Assembly: GCA_023487035.1 (NCBI GenBank)
Contig: JAMDEN010000083.1
Location: 1 to 52,333, forward strand
Source of the DNA: Actinomycetota bacterium
Lineage (GTDB): Bacteria; Actinomycetota; Humimicrobiia; Humimicrobiales; Humimicrobiaceae
Length of the DNA stretch: 52,333 bases
Direction of reading: 5' to 3'
Program-made: the position numbers and the translations under genes
Part shown: positions 33,626-51,503 of the stretch, piece by piece
How positions within the stretch are numbered: position 1 is the stretch's first letter
Layout of the letters: every line of letters starts with the position of its first letter
Notes under the pieces: model-generated
Seen by the model: only the letters and a program-made list of their open reading frames with translations
What the model was told of the DNA's origin: nothing
Databases searched by the model: none

Positions 33626-33892
33626 ATGTTAGCAAAAGTTTTTAACAAAGGACAAATTGTAATACCTGCTACACTAAGAAAAAAATTCAGTATCGAAATA
33701 GGCGAGAGAGTGAACATTATTGTTGAGAAAGATGGTATTAAGATTATACCCGCAAAGAAGAGGGTGGACGCAAAAGAACTTCTGGGTGTATTTTACAAGT
33801 ATGCAAAAAACAAACCATTCCCGAAAGAAATAGAGATAGAGAAAGCAACAGAGGAAGAATTTGTTAAAGGATTCACAGATGAGAAACATTGA
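33626..33892 (+). CDS. AbrB/MazE/SpoVT family antitoxin
   Basis: KVFNKGQIVIPATLRKKFSI. Confidence 0.9.
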   Translation: MLAKVFNKGQIVIPATLRKKFSIEIGERVNIIVEKDGIKIIPAKKRVDAKELLGVFYKYAKNKPFPKEIEIEKATEEEFVKGFTDEKH

Positions 33893-34277
33893 TACAAATG
33901 TCTTTTTGCGTTTCCTTGTTACCGATAGAGAAAACCCGCCAAAGGGACTTCTAAGTTTTTTCTCAAAACTGCAGAAAAGTGAGGCCGAGGTATTTTGCCT
34001 TGACATTGTATTCTTTCAGGTAATATTCGTGCTAAAAAGCTTTTACCAAGTGGAAAAAGAAGAAATCATTAATAGGATGCTTGATTTGGTTTCATTTGAT
34101 GGTTTATATATGAAGGACAAAAGAGTAATTGAAAGAACTCTGGAAATATGGAAAGATTATTCAGGAGATGTTATTGACTGCTATATAGTGGCTAATATGG
34201 AAAAATCGGGTGAGAAAGAGATCGTAAGCTACGATAAGAGGGTTGAAAAGTTGGGCATCAAAAGGATGGAACCGTGA
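33879..34277 (+). CDS. PIN-domain (VapC) toxin
   Basis: IDTNVFLRFL, DVIDC and SYD motifs; overlaps the antitoxin. Confidence 0.88.
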   Translation: MRNIDTNVFLRFLVTDRENPPKGLLSFFSKLQKSEAEVFCLDIVFFQVIFVLKSFYQVEKEEIINRMLDLVSFDGLYMKDKRVIERTLEIWKDYSGDVIDCYIVANMEKSGEKEIVSYDKRVEKLGIKRMEP

Positions 34278-34429
34278 AGAACAATAACTGTTTCCTACTT
34301 GGTCCTCAAAGTCAAGCAAAATTCCAGAGTAAAAAGGCATGAAAATTCAAACCTTAAGTAAAAAATTATTCAATTTCATATCGTACAATAAATTAATAAG
34401 TTTTTAATATTAATATCATATTATATAAT

Positions 34430-34870
34430 TTATATAATTATGGTCTTTATTCCATATTCCTCTGCTAAATCCGTGAGCTTTTTATCTGAACATACAAATA
34501 CAATGTTTTGCAATTCAGAATTTAGTTGTAATGCAGTTGCAAGCTGAATAGAATCTAAAGGGGTTATATATTTCTTATCTATAAGGGTTACTGCTTTAAT
34601 AATATTTTCTGGTAAAACGTCTACTGTATTAATATTTTCAAGTGCTATATCATTAAAAAATTCTTTTTTAATTTTGGAATATATTTCGCTATTTAATTCT
34701 CTGGTTATCTCATTTTTTCTTTTTAAATTCGACATTATCTCAATTATGGTTACATCAGAAATATAAAAAGTACTATCAGTTTGGTTAAAAATATCATCAA
34801 TCTGTTCGGTTCCTTGTTCAGGAAAATACCTTTTAAATAAAGCACTTGTATCAATAAAATAATTATTCAT
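34430..34870 (-). CDS. PIN-domain (VapC) toxin
   Basis: YFIDTSALFKRY..E.G, LDSIQLATA and FVCSDKKL motifs. Confidence 0.92.
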   Translation of the reverse strand: MNNYFIDTSALFKRYFPEQGTEQIDDIFNQTDSTFYISDVTIIEIMSNLKRKNEITRELNSEIYSKIKKEFFNDIALENINTVDVLPENIIKAVTLIDKKYITPLDSIQLATALQLNSELQNIVFVCSDKKLTDLAEEYGIKTIII

Positions 34871-35159
34871 CAATTACAGCTTCCTTCTCCCTGATTTCTC
34901 TTACCTGTTCTGACATATCTGAATTAAAATCTTTAGCCATTTCCCTGACTTTAGATATGCCAATGCTTCCAAGGCTTTCTTTATATGCATAATTTAAAAG
35001 CTTAATTTTATTGCTATCTTGAGGTAAAGGCTTAAGAATCAGATTTCCATCTTGAATATAAGCGCTCATATACATTCCTTCTTTTACATTTATTTTTTCT
35101 CTTAAAGCTTTTGGAATGGTTATTTGTCCTTTAGATGTTATTTTTATTTTGCTAATCAT
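34863..35159 (-). CDS. AbrB/MazE/SpoVT family antitoxin
   Basis: KITSKGQITIPKALREKINVKEG; CTTACT repeated three times just upstream. Confidence 0.9.
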   Translation of the reverse strand: MISKIKITSKGQITIPKALREKINVKEGMYMSAYIQDGNLILKPLPQDSNKIKLLNYAYKESLGSIGISKVREMAKDFNSDMSEQVREIREKEAVIDE

Positions 35160-35541
35160 TATAATTAATCCTTACTTCTTACTCCTTACTTTATTTTATT
35201 GTATTGTATTATTTTTTTTAAAAAGTAGCAATATATTTGTTTATGTGAATTTAAAACTATTCCATTATTTCAGATGAAAATTCCCTCTGCTATTAAAGGA
35301 ACCTGTTTAGTTTGCGAAACAAAAGTTTTTAAAATTAAATCGAACAAAAATCATTTAGGAGATTAAGAAAAATTTGAATAAATTTTTAAATTGCAATGGG
35401 TTTTATGTTTAATTCTAAATGAAGATTATTTTTTTTCTCCATAAAGTAGCATGCTTTTTGATTGAAATTTGTTACATTTTTCGATTGAAAAAACAGATGT
35501 TGAAAACGGTATGAAATCATTTAAGGGATTTTTATAATTTT

Positions 35542-35988
35542 TTATGTTTGTTTTTTTACCAATTCTAAAAATTCTTTAGGAGTTAGTATTGTTATTGGTA
35601 GATTTGCCTGCCTTATAGCTTCTGTCTGAAAGTGCTTACGGTCTAAGGTAATAAGAAAATCGGATTTGCTTTCCAGGGCACTAACAAGCACATGGCGGTC
35701 CTTTAAAGCAATAACATCATCATACTGGCTTAGTTTTTCTTTAGTTGGTGGTTTAATAATGTCTGGATTAAGATTACCTATTTCCTTATAGAAACATAGG
35801 AGAGCTTCAGAGGATAACTTCTTGCGAACATTTCTCTGAGCTTCTAAGAGAATTTTCCGGGTTGTAACAGCAGAAAAGCAGAGTCCTCTACAAACCTCCA
35901 AAATTAAAGAAGAACCGCCACTGGCAGACCCTGCAGCAGCAACAAAAATAGAGGCATCCAGAAAAACTTTCTTCTTTTTCACAACCAT
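35542..35988 (-). CDS. PIN-domain toxin (PIN_3-like)
   Basis: VFLDASIFVAA, KDRHVL and LITLDRKHF motifs. Confidence 0.9.
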   Translation of the reverse strand: MVVKKKKVFLDASIFVAAAGSASGGSSLILEVCRGLCFSAVTTRKILLEAQRNVRKKLSSEALLCFYKEIGNLNPDIIKPPTKEKLSQYDDVIALKDRHVLVSALESKSDFLITLDRKHFQTEAIRQANLPITILTPKEFLELVKKQT

Positions 35989-35989
35989 A

Positions 35990-36280
35990 TTAAAGTTTCC
36001 CCTCAGTAAGAAGCCTTTTTACAGTTCTGACTGTTTCCTGATCTATCTTATCATCCTGTAGAAACTGGGAAATTTCTTTGTCAGTGTATTCCCTCAGTTC
36101 TTCCTCATCAACTTCCCGGACTATGGCAGGGACAATCTCTATTTTGTTCCCTTTTAAAGCAAGGCTTAAAATAGTATTGGAGTCTATTCCAAGTTTTTTA
36201 CGAAACTCTATCGGGATAGTGATTTGTCCTCTAGATAATGGTCTAACAAGTTTAGTCATAAGCTTTTCCCGCTCAGCCAA
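35990..36280 (-). CDS. AbrB/MazE/SpoVT family antitoxin
   Basis: RGQITIPIEFRKKLGI; likely TTG start after GAGGAGG. Confidence 0.88.
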   Translation of the reverse strand: MAEREKLMTKLVRPLSRGQITIPIEFRKKLGIDSNTILSLALKGNKIEIVPAIVREVDEEELREYTDKEISQFLQDDKIDQETVRTVKRLLTEGKL

Positions 36281-36765
36281 TCTGAACACCTCCTCTTTTC
36301 GGATTATCAATAATACGTATTTATTGTAATACGGAAATACTATTTGTCAATAATCAAAATTTTAATTATATTCTCCCAGAGGCGCATACCAGATGAAAAT
36401 AAGCCAAAACATTAAAAAATAACTATAAGCATTAATATAACCAATATAACCAGATAATGAGTAAAGAAGCAAAGAAAAACAAAAACAGCCAGAGAAAGGC
36501 ACTTCTTTCTCTTATCTATCAGCCGGAACTATTTGATTTTATAAACACCAGTTCCTGAAATTAAAAGTTTTAACCTTTATAACGATTTTCATAAACACAG
36601 GCAGTAAAACTTACTCTTAGCATCTCTAAGGCATTTAAATAATACTCCTATGAAGATTTTAATGACCTTATACTCTGTAATTTTGCTTGATTTTGAAGAT
36701 TATTTACAAGTAGCAATATTTTTTAATTAAAATATAGTAAGTATGGTTTTAAGTCAATATAATGG

Positions 36766-37137
36766 CTATTTTTTAAAATATTTTACACTTTCTAAATCTT
36801 TAAAATGAGAGTCTTGGGTCCAGACTATTGCATCATACATCCTGGCAGTTGCATATATTATACTGTCAGCCATTGGCATTTTAAATTTTATGCTTAGCCT
36901 GGCTGCAAGAATTGATATTGAATTTGTTACATCTATAACTTTTGCCTGCTGCATTAACGCTGCAGCCTGGATAGCTTCATTTTCATCTTTTTCTGATAAT
37001 ACCTTTTTATATACTTCATATAAATTAATGACTGATATAATAACTTCAGTAGTATTTTCAATTACTGGAGCAAAGAATTCAGCATTATTGCCATCTGTAA
37101 AATATTCTAACCAAGCTGATGAATCAATTAAATTCAT
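36766..37137 (-). CDS. PIN-domain (VapC) toxin
   Basis: LIDSSAWLEY, LYEVYK, MADSIIYATA and WTQDSHF motifs. Confidence 0.93.
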   Translation of the reverse strand: MNLIDSSAWLEYFTDGNNAEFFAPVIENTTEVIISVINLYEVYKKVLSEKDENEAIQAAALMQQAKVIDVTNSISILAARLSIKFKMPMADSIIYATARMYDAIVWTQDSHFKDLESVKYFKK

Positions 37138-39431: not shown

Positions 39432-40202
39432 ATGAAAAATATAGCAATTGTTTGTGATGTAATGAAGGGCGAGTTAGAAAGATTAAAAAGCCTTAAAAAA
39501 TTAAATAATTTAGATATTGTATTTCTTGAGCAACACTTGCATGACACTCCAGATAAAATGAGAGAAAAACTACAGGAAGAAATAAATAAGGTAGATGATA
39601 GATATGATAAGATAATACTGGGATATGGTCTGTGCAGCAACGGTGTTGTGGGGCTTAAATCAGATAAACATGAAATAATAATCCCTAAAGTAGATGATTG
39701 CATTAGCCTTTTTTTAGGTTCAAAAGAAAAATATATAGAGGAGTTTAAAAAGGATCCGGCAACATATTATCTATGTAAAGGATGGATTGAATACGGAAGT
39801 GACCCTTACAGGGGCTATCTGGTAAATACTGATCAGGAATATAAGATCCCGCAAGGATGGATAAGAAATAGAGAAAGATACGGAAGAAAAGGGATGGATG
39901 AGGAAACTTCCAAATTCCTTATAGCGCAGATGATGAGAAACTATAACAGGGTGCTTCTTATTGATAATAACGATCTTGAGGAAATCCATAGAAAATATGC
40001 CCAGGATATGGTCGATTTCCTTAGCAACCTCTTAGATAAAAAAATTGAGCTCGTTGAAATAAAGGCTTCACCCGAACTTTTAGAAAAACTATGTTGTAAT
40101 AAATGGAATGGAAATATTAATTACAAGGATAATGATTATATTAAAAATAACTTTGTCATTATCCCCAAAGGTAAGAAGGTATCCCAGGAAGAGTTTATGT
40201 AA
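39432..40202 (+). CDS. DUF1638 family protein
   Basis: LH..PDKM...LQE, ILGYGLCSNG, P.VDDCISLFLGS and TYYL.KGW motifs. Confidence 0.88.
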   Translation: MKNIAIVCDVMKGELERLKSLKKLNNLDIVFLEQHLHDTPDKMREKLQEEINKVDDRYDKIILGYGLCSNGVVGLKSDKHEIIIPKVDDCISLFLGSKEKYIEEFKKDPATYYLCKGWIEYGSDPYRGYLVNTDQEYKIPQGWIRNRERYGRKGMDEETSKFLIAQMMRNYNRVLLIDNNDLEEIHRKYAQDMVDFLSNLLDKKIELVEIKASPELLEKLCCNKWNGNINYKDNDYIKNNFVIIPKGKKVSQEEFM

Positions 40203-41397
40203 TTTTTATATATGGTATTGACTTTAAAAATTCTTCCAAATCATAAATATTTTTAATCTCAACTTTCTTTTTACTGGTAATACTATTAAAAACATGTCTC
40301 TGTTTTTCATTCATTTCAGAATTATATTTGACTTCAATCAAAGTTTTATCATAAGTTAAGAAATCAATCTCAAACCCATCTTTATAAATATAACAGGGAT
40401 TGAAATTTTTGATTTTTAAATAAACATAATTTTCAAATAAACTACCAAGATCTTTAAATCCAGTAAAAAGAGATTTAATTCCAAGATCTGAAGCATAAAC
40501 TTTTTTTGGTGACAATATTTTTTCATTAGTTTTACCACATCTTGTAACAGTATATATTAAGTAAGATTCAATAAACATATCAAAATATCTTTTTGATGAA
40601 TCAGGAGAAATGTCTAAAATTTTCGCAATTTTATTTAAGCTCACCTGCTTGCCTACTCTTTCCATAAGAAGAATAAAAAAATCTTTGAGGATGCCTACAT
40701 TTTTGACTTTATATAAATTTGCAATATCTTTATTTATCACATCATCAACAAGTTCCTTTAAGTATTCAATATCTCCATTTAAAACATATTCTGGAATGCC
40801 CCCAGTTTTCATATAATCTTTAAAATATTCCTGAACCAAATTTAAATCCATCTTAGAAATTTTTATTTTCCTGAAATCAAGAAATTCCTCAAAATCAAGA
40901 GGCAATAATTCAATTAAAATATATCTTCCAACAAGATAAGGTTTTCTGCTTCTAAGAACTGAAGAACTTGAAGAACTTGCAAAAATTTTTACATTACTCA
41001 TGTCATAAAGATTTTTTAGTTGAATCTCATAATCATTTTTATAAGTTATTTCATCAAGAAAAACAAAAATTTTATCAGAAAAAGAAATCTTATGAATTTT
41101 TCTGTATTCTTCTATTATTTCAATTATGTTATTTTTTAATAACAAGTAATCATCAAGACTGATATAAAATATTTTATTGCGACTGATATTTTTATCTTCA
41201 AGTAATTTTTTGATCACTAATTTAAATATGGTAGTTTTTCCAACACGTCTTAAACCTGTAAGAAATATAATTTCTTTTGAAGATAATTTTTCAACAAGTA
41301 ACTTGGTAATATTTTTCCTGTCATATATATCTCTTAAAGTATAGTCCCCTTCCCACCAGGGATTATATCTGTAAAAGAGTTCCTCAAGATCTTCCAT
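40195..41397 (-). CDS. AAA_14 ATPase with DUF4143-like region
   Basis: YNPWW, GLRRVGKT, FLDEI, LLPLDFEEF, GGIPE, K.Y..DLG, FENYV and EIDF...IEVK motifs. Confidence 0.88.
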   Translation of the reverse strand: MEDLEELFYRYNPWWEGDYTLRDIYDRKNITKLLVEKLSSKEIIFLTGLRRVGKTTIFKLVIKKLLEDKNISRNKIFYISLDDYLLLKNNIIEIIEEYRKIHKISFSDKIFVFLDEITYKNDYEIQLKNLYDMSNVKIFASSSSSSVLRSRKPYLVGRYILIELLPLDFEEFLDFRKIKISKMDLNLVQEYFKDYMKTGGIPEYVLNGDIEYLKELVDDVINKDIANLYKVKNVGILKDFFILLMERVGKQVSLNKIAKILDISPDSSKRYFDMFIESYLIYTVTRCGKTNEKILSPKKVYASDLGIKSLFTGFKDLGSLFENYVYLKIKNFNPCYIYKDGFEIDFLTYDKTLIEVKYNSEMNEKQRHVFNSITSKKKVEIKNIYDLEEFLKSIPYIKIT

Positions 41398-41442: not shown

Positions 41443-41482
41443 TTATACGTCTATATCGTATAAAATGTCAAATTATTATACG
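41443..41482. promoter_or_regulatory. Promoter/operator of the AAA_14 ATPase gene
   Basis: TTATACG (41443), CGTATAA (41457) and TTATACG (41476) around a minus-strand TTGACA at 41466-41471. Confidence 0.55.
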
Positions 41483-41523
41483 ATTTCAGTTTAAAATAGC
41501 AGAATTTAATTTATTATAATTGA

Positions 41524-42930
41524 TTAAAATATATAAGGTTCATCTTTATTTATTAAAAAAATGTTTTTTTCGTTTTTGGCTATTTTTATAAGGTCTTTTG
41601 TAAATCCTGAGCGCGAAAATAATATATAATATTCTTTTCTTTTTTCTTCTTCCCGCTTAACAAATGAGCTTTTCTTTTTTAATTCATACAATATATTTAT
41701 CCCTACCTTTTTATTTGACCATTTTGCTTCACCAAAAAGAATATTATTATTATCATTATTAATAGCAACAATATCAATTTCGATAGATTCCTTACCTATT
41801 GTATCCCACCAGCTTCCTATTTTTTGAAATTTAAGAACATCTTTTAATTTTACTTGAATAATTTCCTTGCAAACATCTTGATATATTAAAGATGTTGTAA
41901 AGTTAAATTGTTTATCAAAAAACTTAAAAATTTCATCCAAATCTCCAAATTCAATCTCACTTTTAAAAGGAAGTAGGTATTTAAACCAAAAATTTAAAAA
42001 TGGATCAATTATTTTGTATAAACCTTTGCGTGATTTCTCTGGTTTTTCTTCAGTTATCGGAACTCCCTTTCTAATTAACTGAAACTCTTCAAGAACATAT
42101 AAATATTTATGAATGGATGTTTTACTTAATCCGGTGTAATTTAATATTTCTCCAAATTTAGTTTTTCCAAGTGATAAAGCTTTAAGTATGGCAAAATAAA
42201 TTCTTAGCTCTGACAACTGCTCACTTAAAATAATATTTCCCTCATCATATAAAACTGAATTTTTATTAAAAATATTTTCTTTTAAGTTATCACGAAAAGA
42301 TATTTTAGGATTAAACTGTTTTAGATAAAGTGGGATACCTCCACATATTGAATATATATTTAGAAAATTATCAAAACTTAATTCAGGGAAAAACCCCCAT
42401 GCATCATAAAAATTTAAAGGTTTTAAAAATATTTGACCTGTTCTTCTTCCGTATAATGGTGCATTGTGTGCAATTGTTTCCTTAAGCATCATTGATATAC
42501 TTGAACCGCACAAAATTAAAAAAACAGGCAAATACTTTAATATTTCATCCCAACCCTTCTGAAAAACAGAGGATATTGCTTTATTGGATGAAAAAAGATA
42601 TGGAAATTCATCAATGGCTATAACTATTCTTTCTTTAACTGTATCTTTCAAAAAATTAAAAAACTGATACCAATCATTGAAACCATTTTCGATAACAATG
42701 GAACTTCCAAACTTGTTACCCACTATTCTGCCAAGGTTTCTTAGATTTTCTTTCTCTGTTGCTCTATCACATAAATAATAAATAGAATTTTTATTTTTTA
42801 AAAATTCCTTTATAAGCTCAGTTTTTCCAATTCTTCGCTTCCCATATATTATAATAAATTGAGACTCTTTCTTAACCCATATTTTATTTAGAAATTCCAG
42901 TTCTAATTTTCTGTCTATAAATTTATACAT
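41524..42930 (-). CDS. Archaeal-type ATPase (COG1672-like) with wHTH, DUF234 and PD-(D/E)xK-like tail
   Basis: FIDRKLEL, YGKRRIGKT, IDEFPY, CGSS, GGIPLYL, DPFLNFWF and EIDIVA...GEAKW motifs. Confidence 0.9.
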   Translation of the reverse strand: MYKFIDRKLELEFLNKIWVKKESQFIIIYGKRRIGKTELIKEFLKNKNSIYYLCDRATEKENLRNLGRIVGNKFGSSIVIENGFNDWYQFFNFLKDTVKERIVIAIDEFPYLFSSNKAISSVFQKGWDEILKYLPVFLILCGSSISMMLKETIAHNAPLYGRRTGQIFLKPLNFYDAWGFFPELSFDNFLNIYSICGGIPLYLKQFNPKISFRDNLKENIFNKNSVLYDEGNIILSEQLSELRIYFAILKALSLGKTKFGEILNYTGLSKTSIHKYLYVLEEFQLIRKGVPITEEKPEKSRKGLYKIIDPFLNFWFKYLLPFKSEIEFGDLDEIFKFFDKQFNFTTSLIYQDVCKEIIQVKLKDVLKFQKIGSWWDTIGKESIEIDIVAINNDNNNILFGEAKWSNKKVGINILYELKKKSSFVKREEEKRKEYYILFSRSGFTKDLIKIAKNEKNIFLINKDEPYIF

Positions 42931-42992: not shown

Positions 42993-43029
42993 TAGTCTAC
43001 TTTAAAGTAGTCTAATACAAAGTAGACTA
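42993..43029. promoter_or_regulatory. Triple 11-bp box upstream of the ATPase gene (probable operator)
   Basis: TAGTCTACTTT (42993), AAAGTAGTCTA (43004) and AAAGTAGACTA (43019). Confidence 0.6.
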
Positions 43030-43107: not shown

Positions 43108-43671
43108 TTACTTATTTTTTTCTTTTAATAAATATTGTTTACCTAAATCAGTAATTTTCCAAATCCCTCTTTGAGAATCTGACGATAGCAATCCCTCATT
43201 CACCATAGTATTGCGACACCATTGTGCAGAATTTTCCCATCTTACCTGGTTGGGATTTGATAATAATGGTTCTTTATCATAATCATTTAAGCGATCCTTC
43301 ATCTTAATATAAACTTTTTGTAAAGCTTCTTTCATTTTTGCTTCACCATTTAATTCTACTAAAGTTTCTAAAATTGGAATCCTAAATTCTTTTTCATTTG
43401 TTTTTAGCCCTTTTTGTAATTTCTTCGATTTCTTTCTTCTTTTAATCTTTACAGGCAATTTTTCGATGAAAATGCTTTTCCATTCTTTTTGCAGTTCTTT
43501 TACTTTGTCTCTAAAAGCAATTAATTTTGTTGCATTTTCACTTAGAATTTTTGCTTTTTCATAATTTTGACTTTTAAATGATTTTTCGCCTTCATTATTT
43601 AATGAATCTAAGACATTTTCAATTTCACCTAATAATATTTCAAAAGCACTATTAACTTCATTCCTCTCCAT
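43108..43671 (-). CDS. Coiled-coil plus Mrr N-terminal-like winged-helix protein, no nuclease domain
   Basis: FRIPILETL..L.G, RWENSAQWCRN.MV.EGLL and RGIWKITDLG motifs; AGGAGG RBS. Confidence 0.75.
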   Translation of the reverse strand: MERNEVNSAFEILLGEIENVLDSLNNEGEKSFKSQNYEKAKILSENATKLIAFRDKVKELQKEWKSIFIEKLPVKIKRRKKSKKLQKGLKTNEKEFRIPILETLVELNGEAKMKEALQKVYIKMKDRLNDYDKEPLLSNPNQVRWENSAQWCRNTMVNEGLLSSDSQRGIWKITDLGKQYLLKEKNK

Positions 43672-43710
43672 AAAAGCCTCCTAAGAAAAATAAATAACTT
43701 AAAAAAAATA

Positions 43711-46700
43711 TTATTTTTTTACTAATATTTCCCCGCAAATAACTTTAGGTATCTCTTGCTTTTCCAGGTCTATGGTTTTTCTTTCTTTAAGTAAGTCAAA
43801 TTCATTTACTATTCTTATCAGTTCACTTATAAGTTCATTATCTGACAATCTCTTCCTATAAAATATTCTAAGCTTTTTATTTATACCAGTTGGTATAACT
43901 GATGAGAATATCTTAATTAAATTTGAAATAGTTAATTTTCTTTGCTCGTATTCTTCACTAAATTCGTTTAAATTGTTTAATAACATTTCCAATTCTTTTA
44001 ATACATAATCCTGCTCTCTTGTTCTGCTTTTAAATTTTCTATCTTTATCTAATTGACTTTCTTTCATCTTTTTCCTGAAAACGTCAAATGTTTTAGAAAT
44101 AATACTATTTGCCTTGCTTGGCAATTCTTTTAATCCAATCTCATTAGGGTCAGCTTTAACCAGCCTTATAGCTTCATCTTCATTCTGGCTAATAATTTCG
44201 CCATTTTCATCAGTTATATAGAAAGAATAATGTTTCCCCAATCTGCATAAAATAACATACTTGTTTTCATCAGTTTTCCTGATACACCTTACACCATCCT
44301 GCATATTTTTTATCTTTTCAAATAATTCAGGATTATTGTCCTGAAGCTGTCTAATCACGCCTTCAGCTTCACTGATTATGAATTCTTTCTCATCAAAAAT
44401 TTTCTCATCCCTTATATCATAAATTGCATACATATCATTCGGATTTAAAATTTCATTGTCATCAAGATACTTACCGTCCTCACCAAATATATTGTGAATT
44501 TCCTGAATTCTTTTTGAAACCCTTTCTCTAATACCCAATTTTTCTTCAAGTTTTGCTTCAGGCAAGAAATTATAAACAAATATTTCATCCTGCTCCGAGC
44601 CAATTCTGTCAACTCTTCCAACTCTTTGAATTAACCTGACAGGATTCCAATGAATATCATAATTTATAATTACATTACAATCTTGAAGATTTTGTCCTTC
44701 GCTTAACACATCCGTTGAAATAAGAATGTTTATCTGATTATTAAAATCATTTTCAGTTCCATCATTTGCCTTAGGCGAGAACCTTCGTACAATTGAAACA
44801 AGATTAACTGTCTCACTGCTAACTTTCTCAATCTCACCATTAAAATCATTTCCCAGGTTTTCATAAATATATTTTGTAGTATCCGTAAACTGAGAAAATA
44901 TTAGTATTTTTTTATTTTTCTGTTTTATTTCTTTAATTTTTACTTTTAACTGATTAAGTTTATCATCATTTTGAGCCGTAATATTAGCAATGATATTTTT
45001 TATTTCTCTAAATATATTTAAATCATTTAAAAGATCACTTTTTAACTTTTCTATTTCAAAGGCATATATTTCATATTTTTCACCATGTGCTTCAATGATT
45101 TTTTCCAGCTCTCCAGTAAAATCAATCTCATTATCAAGATATTCATCAGTACCATAAATAAAAGATTGAGCTTTATCGCCTATAGGTAAAAGCTTAAGAT
45201 TATCTATTGCTTCTAAATATACTTCATGAATCCTTATCATTGTATTAATTGTTTTTCTGAATGCTTCAATACTGCTTTCAATTCTTTTAAGTAATAATAC
45301 TTTTACAAATCCTCTTAAATTTTTACCGGCATTTTTTAACTCTCTATAAGGACTTTTTCCGTTAAATTCTTTTTTAACATAAGAAAACAAGTTATATCTT
45401 GCATATTTTAATGAACTTAAATAATTTAAAATTTCAGAATACATATTGCTGTAAACATTTTCTATGCTGTAATTTATTGGCTCAGGGATATTTCTTTTTG
45501 GGAAGACTATTGGTTTTCCATTTATTTTTTCATCAGGATAATATTTTTTTATGTGAGCCCTTGTTCTTCTTATTAGAAGATGCTCAAGAAGAGACTGTAA
45601 ATTTACTTTTTTTTCTATTGCTAAATTAATAAATTCCTTAATATTTGCAGGCGTAATCGGAATATCTGTTTCATCTTCATGATGAAATAACTTTATCTGG
45701 TTATATATATCCATTGGAGAATTATTTTGAGGGGTGGCACTCATTAAAATTAATTTCTTATCATAAGGTAAAAGAAATTCAGATAAATTTTTATATCTAT
45801 TATTTTCATTATTTCTAAAATTATGTGATTCATCTATTAATATTATTTCTTTATCTATATATCTTTTTAATCTTGAAAGTCCATCACTTAGGCTTAACTC
45901 CCCTATGGAAATAATTTCAGCACCTAAATCATAAATATTATTGTAGCTTTGCCACATCTGCAAAAGTCTTGGTGGACAAATGATAAGAGCTCTTTTTCCT
46001 TTTTTATGATAATAATCGATAAGAGCAGATCCAATATAGCTTTTACCTAAACCAACTACATCAGATATGAAAACCCCATTATGTTTTTCAAGCATATTAA
46101 TTGCAAGAGCAACAGCTCTTTTCTGAAACTTTGCAAGATCAATAAAAATATCACTATCACCTAATATGAGTTCATCGCTATCTTCCAGCCTGTCTTTGAC
46201 AAGATTGTATAAAATCTTCAGATATATTTCATAAGGAGTTGGATAATTAATAGCCCAGGAATTATTGATTTCAGTAAGCATTTGTTCACTAAAATCTTCA
46301 CTATCATCCCATAGTTTTTCAAACCATTTTGTTAAATATTCATGTTCTCCTTTGCCTTCAATCAGAACATTTAGTTCAGTATTATGGGTTAACCCGGCAA
46401 GGGTAAAGTTTGAAGAACCAACAATAGCAACTCCATCTTCCACAATATTTACCGGATTTCCATCATTATCAAATAATTGTTTTTTATAATCAAAAATATA
46501 TGCTTTTGAATGAAGCTTGTTTTTTAGATAAACTTTAAACCTTATTTTTTTTTCTTTTATAAAATCAGCAAGTCTTTTTAAAGTTAATTCATTTTCATTG
46601 GTGACTTCTGAAGTTTCTATCGATAACCTTACATCGCTTTTTGCATTCTCAATTAAAGGCTCCTTGGCTCTTTTGGTTAATTTTTTATCATTGTTTTCAA

Positions 46701-46950
46701 TTTCCTTAGCAGCATCATCTAAATATCTATAACCTAATGCTATCTCTTCTATGGTTTCTTTATTTGAACTATTGCCAATTATAATATCTATATTTTCAAG
46801 TTTATCTAATTTATTTATCAGGTGGTTAAATCCTTTAATAAAAAAATATCCTGTGGCTATTTTCAAAGATTTGGACATAAGTATGTAGGATTCAATCCTA
46901 TTTAACAAGGAATTTTCTCCTGTAGAATTATCTATTATTCTATGCTGCAC
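43711..46950 (-). CDS. PLD-nuclease / SNF2-type helicase fusion
   Basis: ATGYF, LHSKAYIFD and GSSNFT...ELN (single HKD); DVVGLGKS, DESHNFRN, SATP, SEGQNLQ and WNPVRLIQRVGRVDRIG. Confidence 0.92.
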   Translation of the reverse strand: MQHRIIDNSTGENSLLNRIESYILMSKSLKIATGYFFIKGFNHLINKLDKLENIDIIIGNSSNKETIEEIALGYRYLDDAAKEIENNDKKLTKRAKEPLIENAKSDVRLSIETSEVTNENELTLKRLADFIKEKKIRFKVYLKNKLHSKAYIFDYKKQLFDNDGNPVNIVEDGVAIVGSSNFTLAGLTHNTELNVLIEGKGEHEYLTKWFEKLWDDSEDFSEQMLTEINNSWAINYPTPYEIYLKILYNLVKDRLEDSDELILGDSDIFIDLAKFQKRAVALAINMLEKHNGVFISDVVGLGKSYIGSALIDYYHKKGKRALIICPPRLLQMWQSYNNIYDLGAEIISIGELSLSDGLSRLKRYIDKEIILIDESHNFRNNENNRYKNLSEFLLPYDKKLILMSATPQNNSPMDIYNQIKLFHHEDETDIPITPANIKEFINLAIEKKVNLQSLLEHLLIRRTRAHIKKYYPDEKINGKPIVFPKRNIPEPINYSIENVYSNMYSEILNYLSSLKYARYNLFSYVKKEFNGKSPYRELKNAGKNLRGFVKVLLLKRIESSIEAFRKTINTMIRIHEVYLEAIDNLKLLPIGDKAQSFIYGTDEYLDNEIDFTGELEKIIEAHGEKYEIYAFEIEKLKSDLLNDLNIFREIKNIIANITAQNDDKLNQLKVKIKEIKQKNKKILIFSQFTDTTKYIYENLGNDFNGEIEKVSSETVNLVSIVRRFSPKANDGTENDFNNQINILISTDVLSEGQNLQDCNVIINYDIHWNPVRLIQRVGRVDRIGSEQDEIFVYNFLPEAKLEEKLGIRERVSKRIQEIHNIFGEDGKYLDDNEILNPNDMYAIYDIRDEKIFDEKEFIISEAEGVIRQLQDNNPELFEKIKNMQDGVRCIRKTDENKYVILCRLGKHYSFYITDENGEIISQNEDEAIRLVKADPNEIGLKELPSKANSIISKTFDVFRKKMKESQLDKDRKFKSRTREQDYVLKELEMLLNNLNEFSEEYEQRKLTISNLIKIFSSVIPTGINKKLRIFYRKRLSDNELISELIRIVNEFDLLKERKTIDLEKQEIPKVICGEILVKK

Positions 46951-46952
46951 GA

Positions 46953-49900
46953 TTAAACACTTCCTGCTTTATTTAATCTATTTTGAACTAATTCACAAAC
47001 TGCCCAATATACTTCTTTTCTCTCTTCTTCAGTTAAGCCTAAAATATCGAAAATAATATCATCTAATGCTTTACGATCTGGAAGAGGATTTGGTTCTTGG
47101 GAACGAATTGGAATTTTTGGGTTAAAACCACATTCCTCAAAAATAGATAATATTTTTCGTGATAAAAATCCTTTATTAATTTTTTCTAATATTTTATTAT
47201 TTAAAAATTCTGGATTTAATACAAAAATTCTCTCTGCTTCATAAACTTTAAAATCAAGTGCTCCTTCTCCTAGATTTGTTCTTGCTCCTAATTCAATGAA
47301 AATTGGAGTAATTGAAGAATTCAATATGACTGTTAAAATATCATAATCTTTTTGATTATATAAATAAATATCATATAGCCTAGCATCTACTAAATTATTT
47401 TTGTTTTGCCAAAATATGTGTCTATCATTAAAACTCATCATACAAAAAAAATCGCTATTTTCAGATACTTTTAAACTACTCCAATTATGTCTATTTGAAC
47501 ATGTTGGTCTCTTATGAAAATTTTGTCTTTCCCCCCATTCAATGTATTTTAAAGTATAGGTATCTTTGAGCTCCTGTTTGGATTTATTGCATAGAAAAAC
47601 TTTGTACTTTAAATCTTTGGGATTAATTATAATTGACTTACATTCTCTTGGAGATTTAATAACAGGTTTTAAAAATTCTTCTTCAATAAAGCCCTCCCAT
47701 CCAGCACCATTTCTAACATGTAAAAGCCCTTTAGGGGCTGGTTTTCCAGTAGGCTCAACGTAGAAGAATTCATTTGCACCAGTTTTAATTCCAAATCTTA
47801 CTTCTGCAACTTCTTTCAATGGAATTAATTTACCTTTTCCTTTTTCCAGTATCTTATAATAAATATCTGGGGCTCTTAAATATTTTCCTCCCCATTTTGA
47901 ACCTGTATATTTGCCAATATTATCCTTATAATCAATTTCATTTTCATCATTTTCAATACCTTCTTCTAAAAGATCTTTCTGGCTTTTAACAATCATTCTA
48001 TAGTATTCGTTATTTATTAGATCATTTTTTAAATAAATTTCTAAAATATTTTTTAGTGTTATAGAGTTCTCAAATGCAGTTTTGTGATTTATAAATTTAA
48101 CCTTATTTAACAAGACATCATAATTTTTCTCAGGTTTTCCAATTGAAATAATTATTGTGTTTATATCAGCACTTTTAAAAGACCTTTTAGCTGAGTTATC
48201 ATGAATGTCTATAATCCTGAAATTTTTTAAAAGAAATTCCTGAAGGAAAACTCCATATCCTACATCAAGCCATGAAGTAGAATTTATAAAAGTAAAAATA
48301 CCTTTTTCTTTTAGCAATGAAAGAGAGATAAAATAAAAATAAACATAGTAATCTGACTTTTTATCAAATTTACTAATTTTTTCTTTCCCATAAATATTAA
48401 TAACATTATTTATTAATTTTTCTTTATAATGGCTTTTAATCTCAACGCTAATCTTATCTTTTTCAATTAAAGGTGGGGCTATCTCTTCCTGTCTAATATA
48501 AGGTGGGTTCCCGATTACTATATCAAAACCCCCTTTTTGCACTTCAAAGAAAACATCAGCAAAATCAAGATCCCATATAAAGAAGCCTTTACCTTTTAGT
48601 TCAGAGATTTTATTAATAATATTATCAATTCTTTCAATCTCCAAATTTAGATTTTTCTCATTTAGTTCTCTTTCTAATCTAAATTTATATAGATCAGCCT
48701 TTTCCTTTGTACTGCTTTCAAAAAGCTGTGATGGATCTGCAACTTTTTCAGCATTATAAAGTAACTCAAATTCTCTAATTAAATCCCGTTTTTTAAGAAT
48801 AAGGATGGATTTTATTATTTCCCTCTCTTTTTCTTCAATATCTTGTTTAGTGATATTAGAATCGTCATGATAATAATATCTTAACTTTAAATCCTTTAGC
48901 TCTTTTATATCTTTTAGTATTTTAGGATTAGTTTTATTAGCAGAATTAGTATCCCTTAATATAATTTGGTAACCCTCTATTTCAGATAGCAGACTGTCAC
49001 CATGTCTAATTTTAAAATCAAGAGATGGTAGTATTGGATTATAACCAAAATTGGTAATACTTCCTTCATAATCTCCAATAAGATAAAGCCAAAGCCGCAG
49101 TTCTGCAATCTGAACAGCCCAAGGTTTTATATCAACTCCATGGATTACTTTCTCTATTAAATCCTTTTTTAATTTAAAAATTTGTTCAAAAAAATGAATC
49201 TCAGATTCAAAAATGTTGATGTTTTCCAGTTTAATAAAAATATTTATTATATTTTGAAGTATACCTATAAGAAAAGCACCGGAGCCGCATGCCGGATCAA
49301 CAACTTTCATATTGTTTAATGCTCTTGATATAAGTTCTTTTTCTGAAAGAGTGAGGGTTTCAGAGTAATTCTCAGATTCTTCTTCTAAATAATGTTCAGA
49401 AAATATTAAATTAATAAGTTTTTTAAGGTCGACTTTTGTCTCTGAACTTAGAAAATGCAATAGTGATTTTTTGCACATAAAATCAACTTCAATTCGAGGA
49501 GTATAGAATATGCCTGAACCTGATCTTTCATCTGAATTTACTATTCCCTCATAAATAAGGCCCAGCATTTCCGGATCTATTGCAATTTCTCTATCAAATG
49601 GAGTATCTTCAGTTATTGTAAAATTATATCTATTTATTATTTCAGAAAATATTTCATTTATAAATTCATCACTAATTGCAGCTTCATTAATATCAAGTTC
49701 GCTTTTCTCAAATAAGCCTCCATTTAAATATGGAAGTTTTTCAAATTCAATAATAAGCTTCGGGGAAAGATTTTTTGGCATATATTCTTTATGCTTTGAA
49801 AAAGCATAAAAAAATAAAGGCTGAAATATATCAATATAAATTGAAGAATTCAGGTTAGGGTTTTCTGAAATATAAGATTTATACCTTTTTAATAATTCCT

Positions 49901-50594
49901 CTAAAAAATTGGGATTATTATTTAACCATTTTTTCTTTTCAATATATTTTAAAAATAAAATACGGTTAAAAAACTGGAGAGCAAATGCTTTTGATTGCTG
50001 CAAATCATTAAAATATTTATAGAAATTTTCAGACAGCTTATCCACATATTTTTTTATTATTGCAAAAAACTCTTCTGTTACTGGTTCTATGTCAAATATT
50101 TTATTACTACTTATGTGTTTTATAATATCAGCCTTTGAATAGTTATTGCCTATCTCAAGCTTTGCAATCTGCTCTGAAGCCGTCCTTAGTTTTTCACTTT
50201 TTGCAATTGTGTAACTCGATAGTTTGATGTTATCCTCAGATTTAACAGATACATAAGTAATTTTAAATATATTTTCAGAATTATTTGAAAAAACTATGAT
50301 ACAATCAGTTTTCTTTGAAATTTTTCTGGAAATCTCTCTTTGAATAATGCGGCCTTTATTTAAATCTGGTAATTTTAATTTACAGAAAAATATAAAAAAA
50401 TTATCAACCTCATTAATTAAATTTATAGAGTCAATATTATCTTTTAATTTGGAGCTGATAAAGTCTTGTACTAAATTAATTTCGGATTGCAATGAGGTAG
50501 TTGGTTCAAAATTTAATTCAGTAAATAGATTCTGGACATCCTGCTTTGAATTAAGGTTGTGAAAAATTGTAAATACTTCTTTCGGATCCATCAT
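46953..50594 (-). CDS. Large N6-adenine DNA methyltransferase (Eco57I/type IIG-like) with C-terminal target-recognition region
   Basis: YLNGGLF, DPEMLG.IYE, GIFYTPR, DPACGSGAF, GFDIVIGNPPY and GIKTGANEFF motifs. Confidence 0.92.
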   Translation of the reverse strand: MMDPKEVFTIFHNLNSKQDVQNLFTELNFEPTTSLQSEINLVQDFISSKLKDNIDSINLINEVDNFFIFFCKLKLPDLNKGRIIQREISRKISKKTDCIIVFSNNSENIFKITYVSVKSEDNIKLSSYTIAKSEKLRTASEQIAKLEIGNNYSKADIIKHISSNKIFDIEPVTEEFFAIIKKYVDKLSENFYKYFNDLQQSKAFALQFFNRILFLKYIEKKKWLNNNPNFLEELLKRYKSYISENPNLNSSIYIDIFQPLFFYAFSKHKEYMPKNLSPKLIIEFEKLPYLNGGLFEKSELDINEAAISDEFINEIFSEIINRYNFTITEDTPFDREIAIDPEMLGLIYEGIVNSDERSGSGIFYTPRIEVDFMCKKSLLHFLSSETKVDLKKLINLIFSEHYLEEESENYSETLTLSEKELISRALNNMKVVDPACGSGAFLIGILQNIINIFIKLENINIFESEIHFFEQIFKLKKDLIEKVIHGVDIKPWAVQIAELRLWLYLIGDYEGSITNFGYNPILPSLDFKIRHGDSLLSEIEGYQIILRDTNSANKTNPKILKDIKELKDLKLRYYYHDDSNITKQDIEEKEREIIKSILILKKRDLIREFELLYNAEKVADPSQLFESSTKEKADLYKFRLERELNEKNLNLEIERIDNIINKISELKGKGFFIWDLDFADVFFEVQKGGFDIVIGNPPYIRQEEIAPPLIEKDKISVEIKSHYKEKLINNVINIYGKEKISKFDKKSDYYVYFYFISLSLLKEKGIFTFINSTSWLDVGYGVFLQEFLLKNFRIIDIHDNSAKRSFKSADINTIIISIGKPEKNYDVLLNKVKFINHKTAFENSITLKNILEIYLKNDLINNEYYRMIVKSQKDLLEEGIENDENEIDYKDNIGKYTGSKWGGKYLRAPDIYYKILEKGKGKLIPLKEVAEVRFGIKTGANEFFYVEPTGKPAPKGLLHVRNGAGWEGFIEEEFLKPVIKSPRECKSIIINPKDLKYKVFLCNKSKQELKDTYTLKYIEWGERQNFHKRPTCSNRHNWSSLKVSENSDFFCMMSFNDRHIFWQNKNNLVDARLYDIYLYNQKDYDILTVILNSSITPIFIELGARTNLGEGALDFKVYEAERIFVLNPEFLNNKILEKINKGFLSRKILSIFEECGFNPKIPIRSQEPNPLPDRKALDDIIFDILGLTEEERKEVYWAVCELVQNRLNKAGSV

Positions 50595-50726
50595 TATTTA
50601 AAAATATTAATTTAAATAATTATATGTACTATTAACAAGTTAGGTTAACAGTTAGCTCTTTGAAAAAATCAAAGGCCATGTAAACACTTTTGGTATAAAA
50701 CTAGATTTTTATAATACCCATTCTAT

Positions 50727-51503
50727 CTATCTCGATAATGTTAATTTCTTTTTTATTAATGTCCCATTTTTAATATGATAATTAATTTCATGATCAAGAC
50801 AAAAATTAATAATTTGATCGCTTAGTTTATTATAATAATTAATTCTATCCATATATTTCGTAACCATGGCATTATAATTTAATTTTCCAAAAATAATCTT
50901 ATTCACAAAAGATATTGATTCTAATATTTTTTTGAAATCCTGGACTAAAATGTTTGGTGTAGGATAAGGTTCAATACTAACCCAGGTTTTAAAACCTTTT
51001 CTATGCAGATGATAAAGACTCTCAATTCTTTTAAGATAAGGTGCAGAAAAAGGTTCATATTTTAGCCTGAAGATTTCATTTAAGGAGATTAATGTAATAC
51101 CATATTCATTTTCTTCTGATAGCTCAGAAAGTGCTTCCGGTAAAATTCCTTTAGTAAGAACAGTGCATTTTATATTATTTTTATTTAATTTTTCTACTAC
51201 CTGAAAACTTAAATCCATGACTTTTTTTTGATTATACATGAAGGGATCAGTTGAAAAACAAAGGTGGACAAACTTTATTTTGTTTTTAAATTTTGGAATT
51301 TCCTCATCTAATAATTCTAATGTATTAGAGACTATTTCTGGCCGAATCCATTCTTCATAATTTTTCACCTTGCCAAACCTTTTTGCCATTAAAAATGCAT
51401 AACAAGGATATTTACAGCCATGAGAACATCCTTGAATATGGTTAATGGTATAATCACCATATTCAACACCTGTCTTATATAATAAAGTTTTTCTGGTAAT
51501 CAT
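50727..51503 (-). CDS. Radical SAM protein, spore photoproduct lyase-like
   Basis: N...GCSHGCKYPCYA Cys motif; STDPF, VLTKG, GITL, EP..AP...RI and TWVSIEP. Confidence 0.85.
   Translation of the reverse strand: MITRKTLLYKTGVEYGDYTINHIQGCSHGCKYPCYAFLMAKRFGKVKNYEEWIRPEIVSNTLELLDEEIPKFKNKIKFVHLCFSTDPFMYNQKKVMDLSFQVVEKLNKNNIKCTVLTKGILPEALSELSEENEYGITLISLNEIFRLKYEPFSAPYLKRIESLYHLHRKGFKTWVSIEPYPTPNILVQDFKKILESISFVNKIIFGKLNYNAMVTKYMDRINYYNKLSDQIINFCLDHEINYHIKNGTLIKKKLTLSR

Follow-up and report, generated by a model that had tools for sequence, protein, structure and literature searches.

In MANTIS, Gao_RL and the type-2 BREX-related systems, an N6-adenine methyltransferase (MTase) sets the specificity (bioRxiv 10.64898/2026.09.23.753747; PMC12839542). 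As far as the accessible parts of these two reports go, MANTIS requires MtsA (DUF499 AAA+) and MtsB (DUF3780), and the BR-system MTases carry DUF1156. The PLD-SF2 effector of MANTIS acts as a dimer that has a single composite active site, inverted sites were restricted best, and methylation requires an extra AAA+ loader (10.64898/2026.09.23.753747). Pairs of a Cj0031-like ‘type II RM enzyme’ and a PLD (cd09178)-SNF helicase (cd18793) are listed, unnamed, in Table 3 of Milman et al. (2023; PMC9881135, seen in part), and the accessible text of PMC2292703 places HKD domains on helicases linked to restriction-modification (RM). Here we compare these systems with four genes in a window of 52,333 nucleotides, the whole of contig JAMDEN010000083.1 from an Actinomycetota assembly of the family Humimicrobiaceae (GCA_023487035.1). 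The genes encode a radical SAM protein, an N6-adenine MTase, a helicase in which a PLD domain is fused to an SNF2-type motor, and a small protein made of a helical hairpin and an Mrr_N winged helix (hairpin-Mrr_N).

The original prediction took the four neighbouring genes for one new defence system. We conclude that they are not; the stretch probably holds three separately mobile things, namely the MTase-helicase pair, the hairpin-Mrr_N gene and the radical SAM gene. All four open reading frames were confirmed on the minus strand, with 132 bp between the radical SAM and MTase genes, 2 bp between the MTase stop and the helicase GTG start, and 39 bp between the helicase and hairpin-Mrr_N genes. 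Every protein gave Pfam matches over cut-off (Radical_SAM; Eco57I; PLDc_2, SNF2-rel_dom and Helicase_C; Mrr_N), and none reached the cut-off of any NCBIfam model.

The methyltransferase and PLD-SNF2 helicase pair

Adjacent, co-oriented MTase and PLD-SNF2 genes are conserved across genomes. A profile of thirty-nine helicase homologues led to 583 confirmed metagenome stretches, the best eighty of which served as helicase loci. An MTase homologue was found in forty-four of the eighty by BLAST (forty-five by a motif rule), and in 15/17 of those with at least 4 kb on both sides; many of the other contigs were short. Both gene orders were seen, and passenger genes were often inserted between MTase and helicase. 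The source genome (2.23 Mb, 174 contigs, 79.7% complete) carries a second such pair on another contig (C145), accompanied by neither a radical SAM nor an Mrr_N gene. GTDB contigs scanned with a single helicase sequence yielded no relatives. It is likely that the conserved unit comprises these two genes.

The MTase matched Pfam Eco57I (E 4e-28) and, in PADLOC, REase_MTase_IIG (3e-44) and DrmMI (1e-20). Gamma-class amino-MTase motifs I and IV are both intact, as originally reported (DPACGSG at residue 433, NPPY at 696), and a Pfam scan at E ≤ 0.01 returned Eco57I and MmeI_Mtase, with no DUF1156. The C-terminal part is presumed to serve in target recognition. A sequence search found no solved relative of this protein. 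The helicase has a single PLD half-site (HSKAYIFD at 147, GSSN at 178), which agrees with the earlier description of one HKD motif fused to an SNF2 motor, followed by DVVGLGKS (297), DESH (373), SATP (404) and QRVGRVDR (775). A second HxKxxxxD pattern, at 466, falls within the SNF2 core and outside the Pfam PLD match (63-214). Residues H147, K149, D154, G178-S179-S180-N181, the Walker A K303 and D373-E374-S375-H376 are invariant in the thirty-nine homologues. PADLOC was also searched for a match to a named system; the best matches were generic, namely REase_MTase_IIG for the MTase and C3a139 ‘HKD+Snf2’ for the helicase (2e-71, residues 13-997). Domains, intact catalytic motifs, gene coupling and conserved pairing of the two genes are plain to see.

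The pair is probably an ATP-driven RM system; on this point the original prediction of an RM-like module distinct from class I DISARM and BREX stands. By analogy, MANTIS would be the best experimental model for how it works. The target recognition domain of the MTase would recognize a short, probably asymmetric site and methylate adenine in host DNA. At an unmethylated site the MTase may load the PLD-SNF2 protein, as in MANTIS (MtsC/MtsD) and in type III and type ISP enzymes, and this protein would spend ATP to move on or remodel DNA. If the analogy extends further, the single HKD half-sites of two PLD-SNF2 protomers would then together make up one active PLD site for cleavage, which would probably be most efficient at two inverted sites. 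Self-methylation, MTase-directed loading and ATP-driven PLD cleavage are thus all steps that the pair would be expected to carry out. One point weighs against this account: the two-gene pair may work differently from MANTIS, because methylation there depends on the extra AAA+ loader.

The likeness to MANTIS lies in an N6-adenine MTase together with an HKD/PLD domain fused N-terminally to an SNF2-type helicase; a dimer is only presumed here. The window MTase differs in being Eco57I-like with no DUF1156 match, and DUF499 (PF04465) was not found in the source genome (control match in 2/14). A DUF3780 search gave no match in the source genome and none in the controls, and none of the flanking genes scanned matched DUF3780 in Pfam. 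The two ATPases downstream in the window are ATPase_2/DUF234 and AAA_14/DUF4143 proteins, not DUF499. The pairs of Milman et al. share a large Eco57I-class MTase directly adjoining a PLD-SNF2 fusion, in either gene order. They differ in having been chosen for programmed inversions, and the accessible part of that paper mentions no Mrr_N or radical SAM gene and reports no function for the pair.

Class I DISARM consists of the SNF2 protein DrmD with DrmMI, DrmA, DrmB and DrmC. It resembles the pair in its SNF2 ATPase, Eco57I-like adenine MTase and PLD domain, and the DrmD and DrmMI models match partially. Here, however, the PLD domain is fused to the SNF2 protein, DrmD scored 133 bits against a cut-off of 610, and no second helicase gene (DrmA) lies beside the pair. 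PglX models of BREX scored far below cut-off, and BrxC models matched none of the seven locus proteins scanned. Consistent with the earlier statement that DISARM and BREX parts are missing, neither DUF1998/MZB (DrmB, PF09369; control match in 8/14) nor PglZ (PF08665; control match in 2/14) was found in the 79.7%-complete genome. Since DUF499, DUF1998 and PglZ were not found, the pair is no member of MANTIS, DISARM or BREX, yet by analogy it most likely works like MANTIS or type III RM. The literature that we searched, which left out most subscription journals, held no description of a named two-gene Eco57I and PLD-SNF2 system. The pair is widespread and belongs to a known but untested kind that is listed in print unnamed. 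It looks like a minimal MANTIS without the AAA+ loader, and so bears on whether two proteins suffice for MTase-directed loading of a PLD motor-nuclease.

Table 1. Features of the four-gene locus, by position in the window
Feature	Position	Strand	Description
Radical SAM gene	50727-51503	minus	258 aa; Cx3Cx3C; likely orphan of a TcmP-partnered cassette; outside the RM pair
Sigma70-like promoter candidate, weak	50619-50648	minus	TTAACC-18-TATAAT, in the radical SAM-MTase intergenic gap; 10/12 consensus matches
MTase (core gene 1)	46953-50594	minus	1213 aa; gamma-class N6-adenine DNA methyltransferase, Eco57I/Cj0031-like
Helicase (core gene 2)	43711-46950	minus	1079 aa; fusion of single-HKD PLD and SNF2-type SF2 ATPase; GTG start
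Hairpin-Mrr_N gene (optional accessory)	43108-43671	minus	187 aa; helical hairpin, linker and Mrr_N winged helix

The hairpin-Mrr_N protein

This protein matches Pfam Mrr_N (E 1e-17) and ends at residue 187, just past that domain, with no nuclease domain. Its AlphaFold2 model (predicted local distance difference test score, pLDDT, 85.7) has a two-helix hairpin (residues 3-67), a flexible basic linker (73-87) and a winged helix (93-186); Foldseek returned no match to the model at E ≤ 0.001 and only generic winged-helix fold matches. As a homodimer it scored 0.42, compared with 0.04 for the best of three controls, at a mark reached by 20/30 solved homodimers and 1/23 single chains. The runs agreed in at least 51% of contacts with pLDDT of at least 75, and the predicted interface (2-20, 42-70) spans the hairpin residues A9, F10 and W64, which are invariant in the family. 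The models support self-association. Most likely the protein would dimerize through a four-helix bundle, with two tethered winged helices binding DNA.

According to the accessible part of a review (PMC12707154), EcoKMrr uses the Mrr winged helix for binding and is controlled by its oligomeric state. The hairpin-Mrr_N protein shares this winged helix with the type IV enzyme and differs in lacking the Mrr_cat nuclease, in place of which it has an N-terminal hairpin predicted to dimerize. Mrr_N is also found in Menshen, as an accessory domain of the sensor type (PMC12065111), and among the domains fused to McrB (PMC11090510), and the methyl-adenine readers put to the test in PMC11037411 are winged helices of the DpnI type rather than Mrr_N, in the portions of these papers that could be seen.

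The gene is full-length in three of the eighty helicase loci (L111, L117, L136), or 2/17 of the well-covered ones. A profile that included these three proteins was run over seven genome sets (87, 301, 401, 93, 301, 401 and 121 genomes) and viral contigs, and gave full-length matches outside the source genome in twelve genomes and two viral contigs (n = 14, the three profile members not counted). Ten of the fourteen records adjoin RM genes of three types, co-oriented in every case. Seven have an MTase and SNF2 pair (G207, G118, G810, G812, G1299, G1213, L180), with the PLD HxK motif confirmed in all of these except G118. The others follow MTase pieces on a short contig (G312), type I HsdS/HsdR genes (G025) and a type ISP enzyme (L181). 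Two of the four records from the last genome set, which was scanned once the idea had formed, were RM-linked. By the same motif rule, a gamma-class MTase lies within 5 kb of 7/14 hairpin-Mrr_N genes, as against 6/80 radical SAM loci and 1.9% of the source genome. Partial or weak rows were excluded from these counts (L182, weak and partial; L131, weak; G1274 and G1317, winged helix only; L108, winged helix only and on the opposite strand). The profile found nothing in ten hand-picked genomes, 301 of the phylum of G100 or 121 of the phylum of G101, there were no matches to the protein in plasmids, and an Atlas search returned Mrr_N clusters only.

The wider family comprises 644 clusters at 50% identity (E ≤ 1e-30), some of them perhaps winged-helix-only, and 116 of the best 150 representatives are at most 235 aa long. 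Tandem Mrr_N is present in nine of thirty-six longer relatives. SeqA-C (over cut-off), RAMA (under cut-off), ArsR, TerB and a DEAD fragment each occur in single proteins of this group, and not one of the thirty-six matches a Pfam nuclease family. One relative has a stretch resembling ScoMcrA (E 1e-4), presumably the SRA domain of that protein. A C-terminal domain of about 90 aa with no Pfam match is common to five relatives (P0293, P0306, P0383, P0395, P0427).

Hairpin-Mrr_N accompanies several types of ATP-dependent RM system as an optional accessory without a nuclease. Its RM association is the single new observation at this locus, and a modest lead. Of its earlier description as a DNA-binding reader, the enrichment beside RM genes, the predicted dimer and some fusions to reader domains speak in favour; the support is partial, as the protein is optional and not pair-specific. 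We tentatively favour a reader that recognizes methylated sites of the host and thereby damps or steers restriction.

It is quite conceivable, if somewhat doubtful, that hairpin-Mrr_N is instead an independent passenger or defence gene that collects at the 3′ ends of RM operons with no functional tie to them. Its full-length presence in so few helicase loci fits this, and so does its scatter on the helicase tree, where nine of seventy-nine rows bear the label with eight changes, as against a shuffled mean of 8.7 (128 of 500 shuffles gave as few). The tree was built by FastTree with long-branch and composition warnings, and helicases shorter than 750 aa were left out unless they bore the label. 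As the label is unclustered, the gene appears to have joined and left pairs repeatedly. It is also found after RM genes of unrelated types (type I, type ISP), it shares its operons with other passengers (HicB, KAP NTPase, DUF1016/YhcG), and no common upstream operator was found. Against a mere passenger stand an RM adjacency (7/14 by motif) that clearly exceeds the 6/80 of the radical SAM family, which is likewise a gene of defence regions, the co-orientation in 10/10 RM-linked records, and the lack of an effector domain in the protein itself, with 0/36 longer relatives matching a nuclease family.

Some observations weigh against a reader as well. No RM neighbour was found for 4/14 records (G505, G833, G1525, G1206), the fourteen are not independent (G810 and G812 are sister rows; L180, G1299 and G1213 are alike) so that kin inflate the count, and the dimer score lies exactly at its mark. 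We regard a role as transcription regulator as unlikely. The search for a shared operator or palindrome upstream of fifteen Mrr_N genes or six RM operon starts, which had low power, found none, and the gene lies downstream in its operons; a classical controller role is weakened for these reasons.

A broader proposal, which we hold to be rather unlikely as a whole, is that hairpin-Mrr_N founds an undescribed family of nuclease-free dimeric readers that plug into MTase and PLD-SNF2, type I and type ISP systems, bind methylated or hemimethylated host sites through swappable reader domains (Mrr_N repeats, SeqA-C, RAMA, SRA-like), and tune restriction. They might do so, for example, by protecting DNA that has just been replicated against cutting by the cell's own system. 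We found no description of the family in the same body of literature. In either case it offers a nuclease-free handle on the binding target of Mrr_N and on how ATP-dependent RM systems avoid self.

Some further features of these loci deserve mention. In G207, a second hairpin-Mrr_N copy (L189:8162-8810) lies 10 kb from the first, and the roughly 90 bp before it share 83% identity with the 3′ end of the MTase gene, which suggests that the copy moved together with an MTase tail. Proteins with sigma70 domains (regions 2 and 4) directly follow the hairpin-Mrr_N genes in two helicase loci (L111:3110-4900, L180:8565-9755). Their N-termini align by eye with the N-terminal domain of the MTase, though the L180 protein gave only a weak result in a profile test (probability 1.9%). 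In two loci of Planctomycetota, a short DprA-like gene follows the helicase, MTase and hairpin-Mrr_N genes (L210:10122-10607, L211:8492-9133).

The nuclease of the pair

In eighteen aligned homologues, the N-terminal 180 aa of the MTase show no acidic or lysine column that is invariant or nearly so, in accord with the earlier failure to see a PD-(D/E)xK site there. The modelled domain (pLDDT 86.8) resembles the N-termini of DrdV (Z 6.1, root-mean-square deviation 3.5, 108 residues aligned) and BpuSI (Z 5.2, deviation 4.3, 128 aligned), both middling matches. Given the lack of a conserved acidic or lysine column, we infer from the sequences that this domain is restriction endonuclease-like and inactive, and that the PLD domain is the only nuclease. 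The fold match, being only middling and level with that to an unrelated lipoprotein, weighs against this.

An active type IIG RM enzyme, with the PLD-SNF2 protein as a separate or back-up nuclease (for instance a modification-dependent one like SauUSI), is improbable. Such an enzyme would account for the best PADLOC match of the MTase (REase_MTase_IIG), for the likeness to the DrdV and BpuSI nuclease domains and for the label of type II RM enzyme in the accessible part of PMC9881135. That PADLOC match, however, begins at residue 164, beyond the N-terminal domain; conserved PD-(D/E)xK columns were found neither in eighteen nor in twenty-four aligned N-termini; a Pfam scan of the helicase showed no SRA or other reader family; and the MTase and helicase genes travel together.

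The radical SAM gene and the setting of the locus

The radical SAM protein has the motif C26-x3-C30-x3-C34, one residue longer than the usual CxxxCxxC, and its three cysteines are invariant in forty aligned homologues. Conservation of the family is tight even between phyla, most of the top 120 matches having 62-78% identity; a search for a solved relative of the alignment gave one chance-level match only. We examined the best eighty of 577 confirmed GTDB stretches, in most of which a gene of about 380 aa, TcmP, lies directly upstream. TcmP was found beside the radical SAM gene in seventy-two of the eighty (sixty-nine by profile, two more by six-frame search and one contig-edge fragment by BLAST clustering). 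TIGR04474 was over cut-off in all four TcmP genes tested, three from radical SAM loci and one from a helicase locus.

The TcmP partner matches PADLOC PDC-M30A/M41A, and the window protein matches the companion models weakly (PDC-M41B 2e-7, PDC-M30B 1e-6). PDC-M30 and M41 are PADLOC candidates made of TcmP (TIGR04474) and a three-cysteine radical SAM/DUF5131 protein; the accessible main text of the PDC preprint (10.1101/2024.01.29.577857) names neither. The window copy differs from them in that DUF5131 stays under cut-off, its subfamily being Radical_SAM, and in that no TcmP was found, by profile or TIGR04474, upstream of it or elsewhere in the assembly.

We consider it fairly likely that the gene is the remaining half of a TcmP-radical SAM cassette, orphaned here, and it would sit at this place because such cassettes insert in defence regions. 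Its nearest relative in the located sample (L024, in the same-family genome G048) has TcmP. TcmP-less copies are scattered on the tree (eleven rows, ten changes, shuffled mean 10.5). Another genome of the family (G079) has a normal TcmP-radical SAM pair and, 2.6 kb from it, a natural 588-aa TcmP-radical SAM fusion (L228:11700-13466, minus strand, contig C14), which is also near a type ISP gene. A copy from the same genus (G003) is 67% identical to this fusion from residue 284 on and retains only about thirty residues resembling the TcmP start, a pattern consistent with internal loss of TcmP from a fusion. TcmP had no match in G003 or in G011 (99% complete).

Several points speak against an orphan. 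The window copy is intact, and the located sample lacks its eight closest homologues (P0001-P0008, 74-95% identity), which may represent a local TcmP-free sub-lineage tied to RM genes. TcmP could also be unassembled in the source genome, given its 79.7% completeness.

That the radical SAM enzyme serves the MTase-helicase pair by modifying or repairing bases within one four-gene system, as originally predicted, is very improbable: the shared strand, the 132-bp gap, the missing TcmP, a TcmP-less copy three genes from an Eco57I-like MTase (G003, L194) and two more adjoining type III-like mod/res genes (L013, L017) fit it, yet the gene is in 0/80 helicase loci, the pair is in 1/80 radical SAM loci (L054) with TcmP in between, and among eighty-six other genomes of the class the helicase occurs in eight and the radical SAM gene in five, both only in G011 and there on different contigs. 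The helicase profile gave weak or full matches in 4/80 radical SAM loci. With a motif-called MTase within 5 kb in 1/8 TcmP-less and 12/72 TcmP-bearing loci, there is no MTase enrichment near TcmP-less copies. Linkage in other genomes had been set beforehand as the refuting test; none was conserved between the radical SAM gene and the pair, and the conserved partner was TcmP. The four-gene system dissolves and is not to be pursued as a base-modifying defence system.

In G003 the TcmP stub-bearing gene lies in a co-oriented run with an Eco57I-like MTase, a Piwi-domain Argonaute (687 aa) and a SIR2-like protein (L194:297-7748, contig C151). Elsewhere the radical SAM gene, with or without TcmP, lies amid or adjoining type III-like mod/res genes (L012, L013, L017, L039).

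The four genes have 27-28% G+C and the genome 28.6%, so they form no compositional island. The promoter candidate between the radical SAM and MTase genes is graded weak because ninety-five sites of its grade were counted, against 79.8 ± 7.7 in shuffles. One end of the window contig (C43) shares an overlap of at least 120 bases with contig C19, and the C19 genes beyond it are unrelated. The surroundings of the four genes are rich in defence genes, among them several PIN genes and those of two PDC-S-like ATPases; at 33861-37137, a gene for a MazE/AbrB-type antitoxin clusters with four of the PIN/VapC type.

The two ATPase genes downstream of the locus were considered as members of the system and rejected, with homologues of the first in none and of the second in one or two of the eighty helicase loci, and with a palindrome of its own upstream of each. 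Upstream of the ATPase_2-HTH-DUF234 gene (41524-42930, PDC-S27-like) is a perfect 11-bp inverted repeat with a 15-bp spacer and a third copy of the arm (42993-43029), likely an autoregulatory operator. Upstream of the AAA_14-DUF4143 gene (40195-41397, PDC-S01-like), a perfect 9-bp inverted repeat (41455-41484) overlaps a 12/12 sigma70 promoter match.

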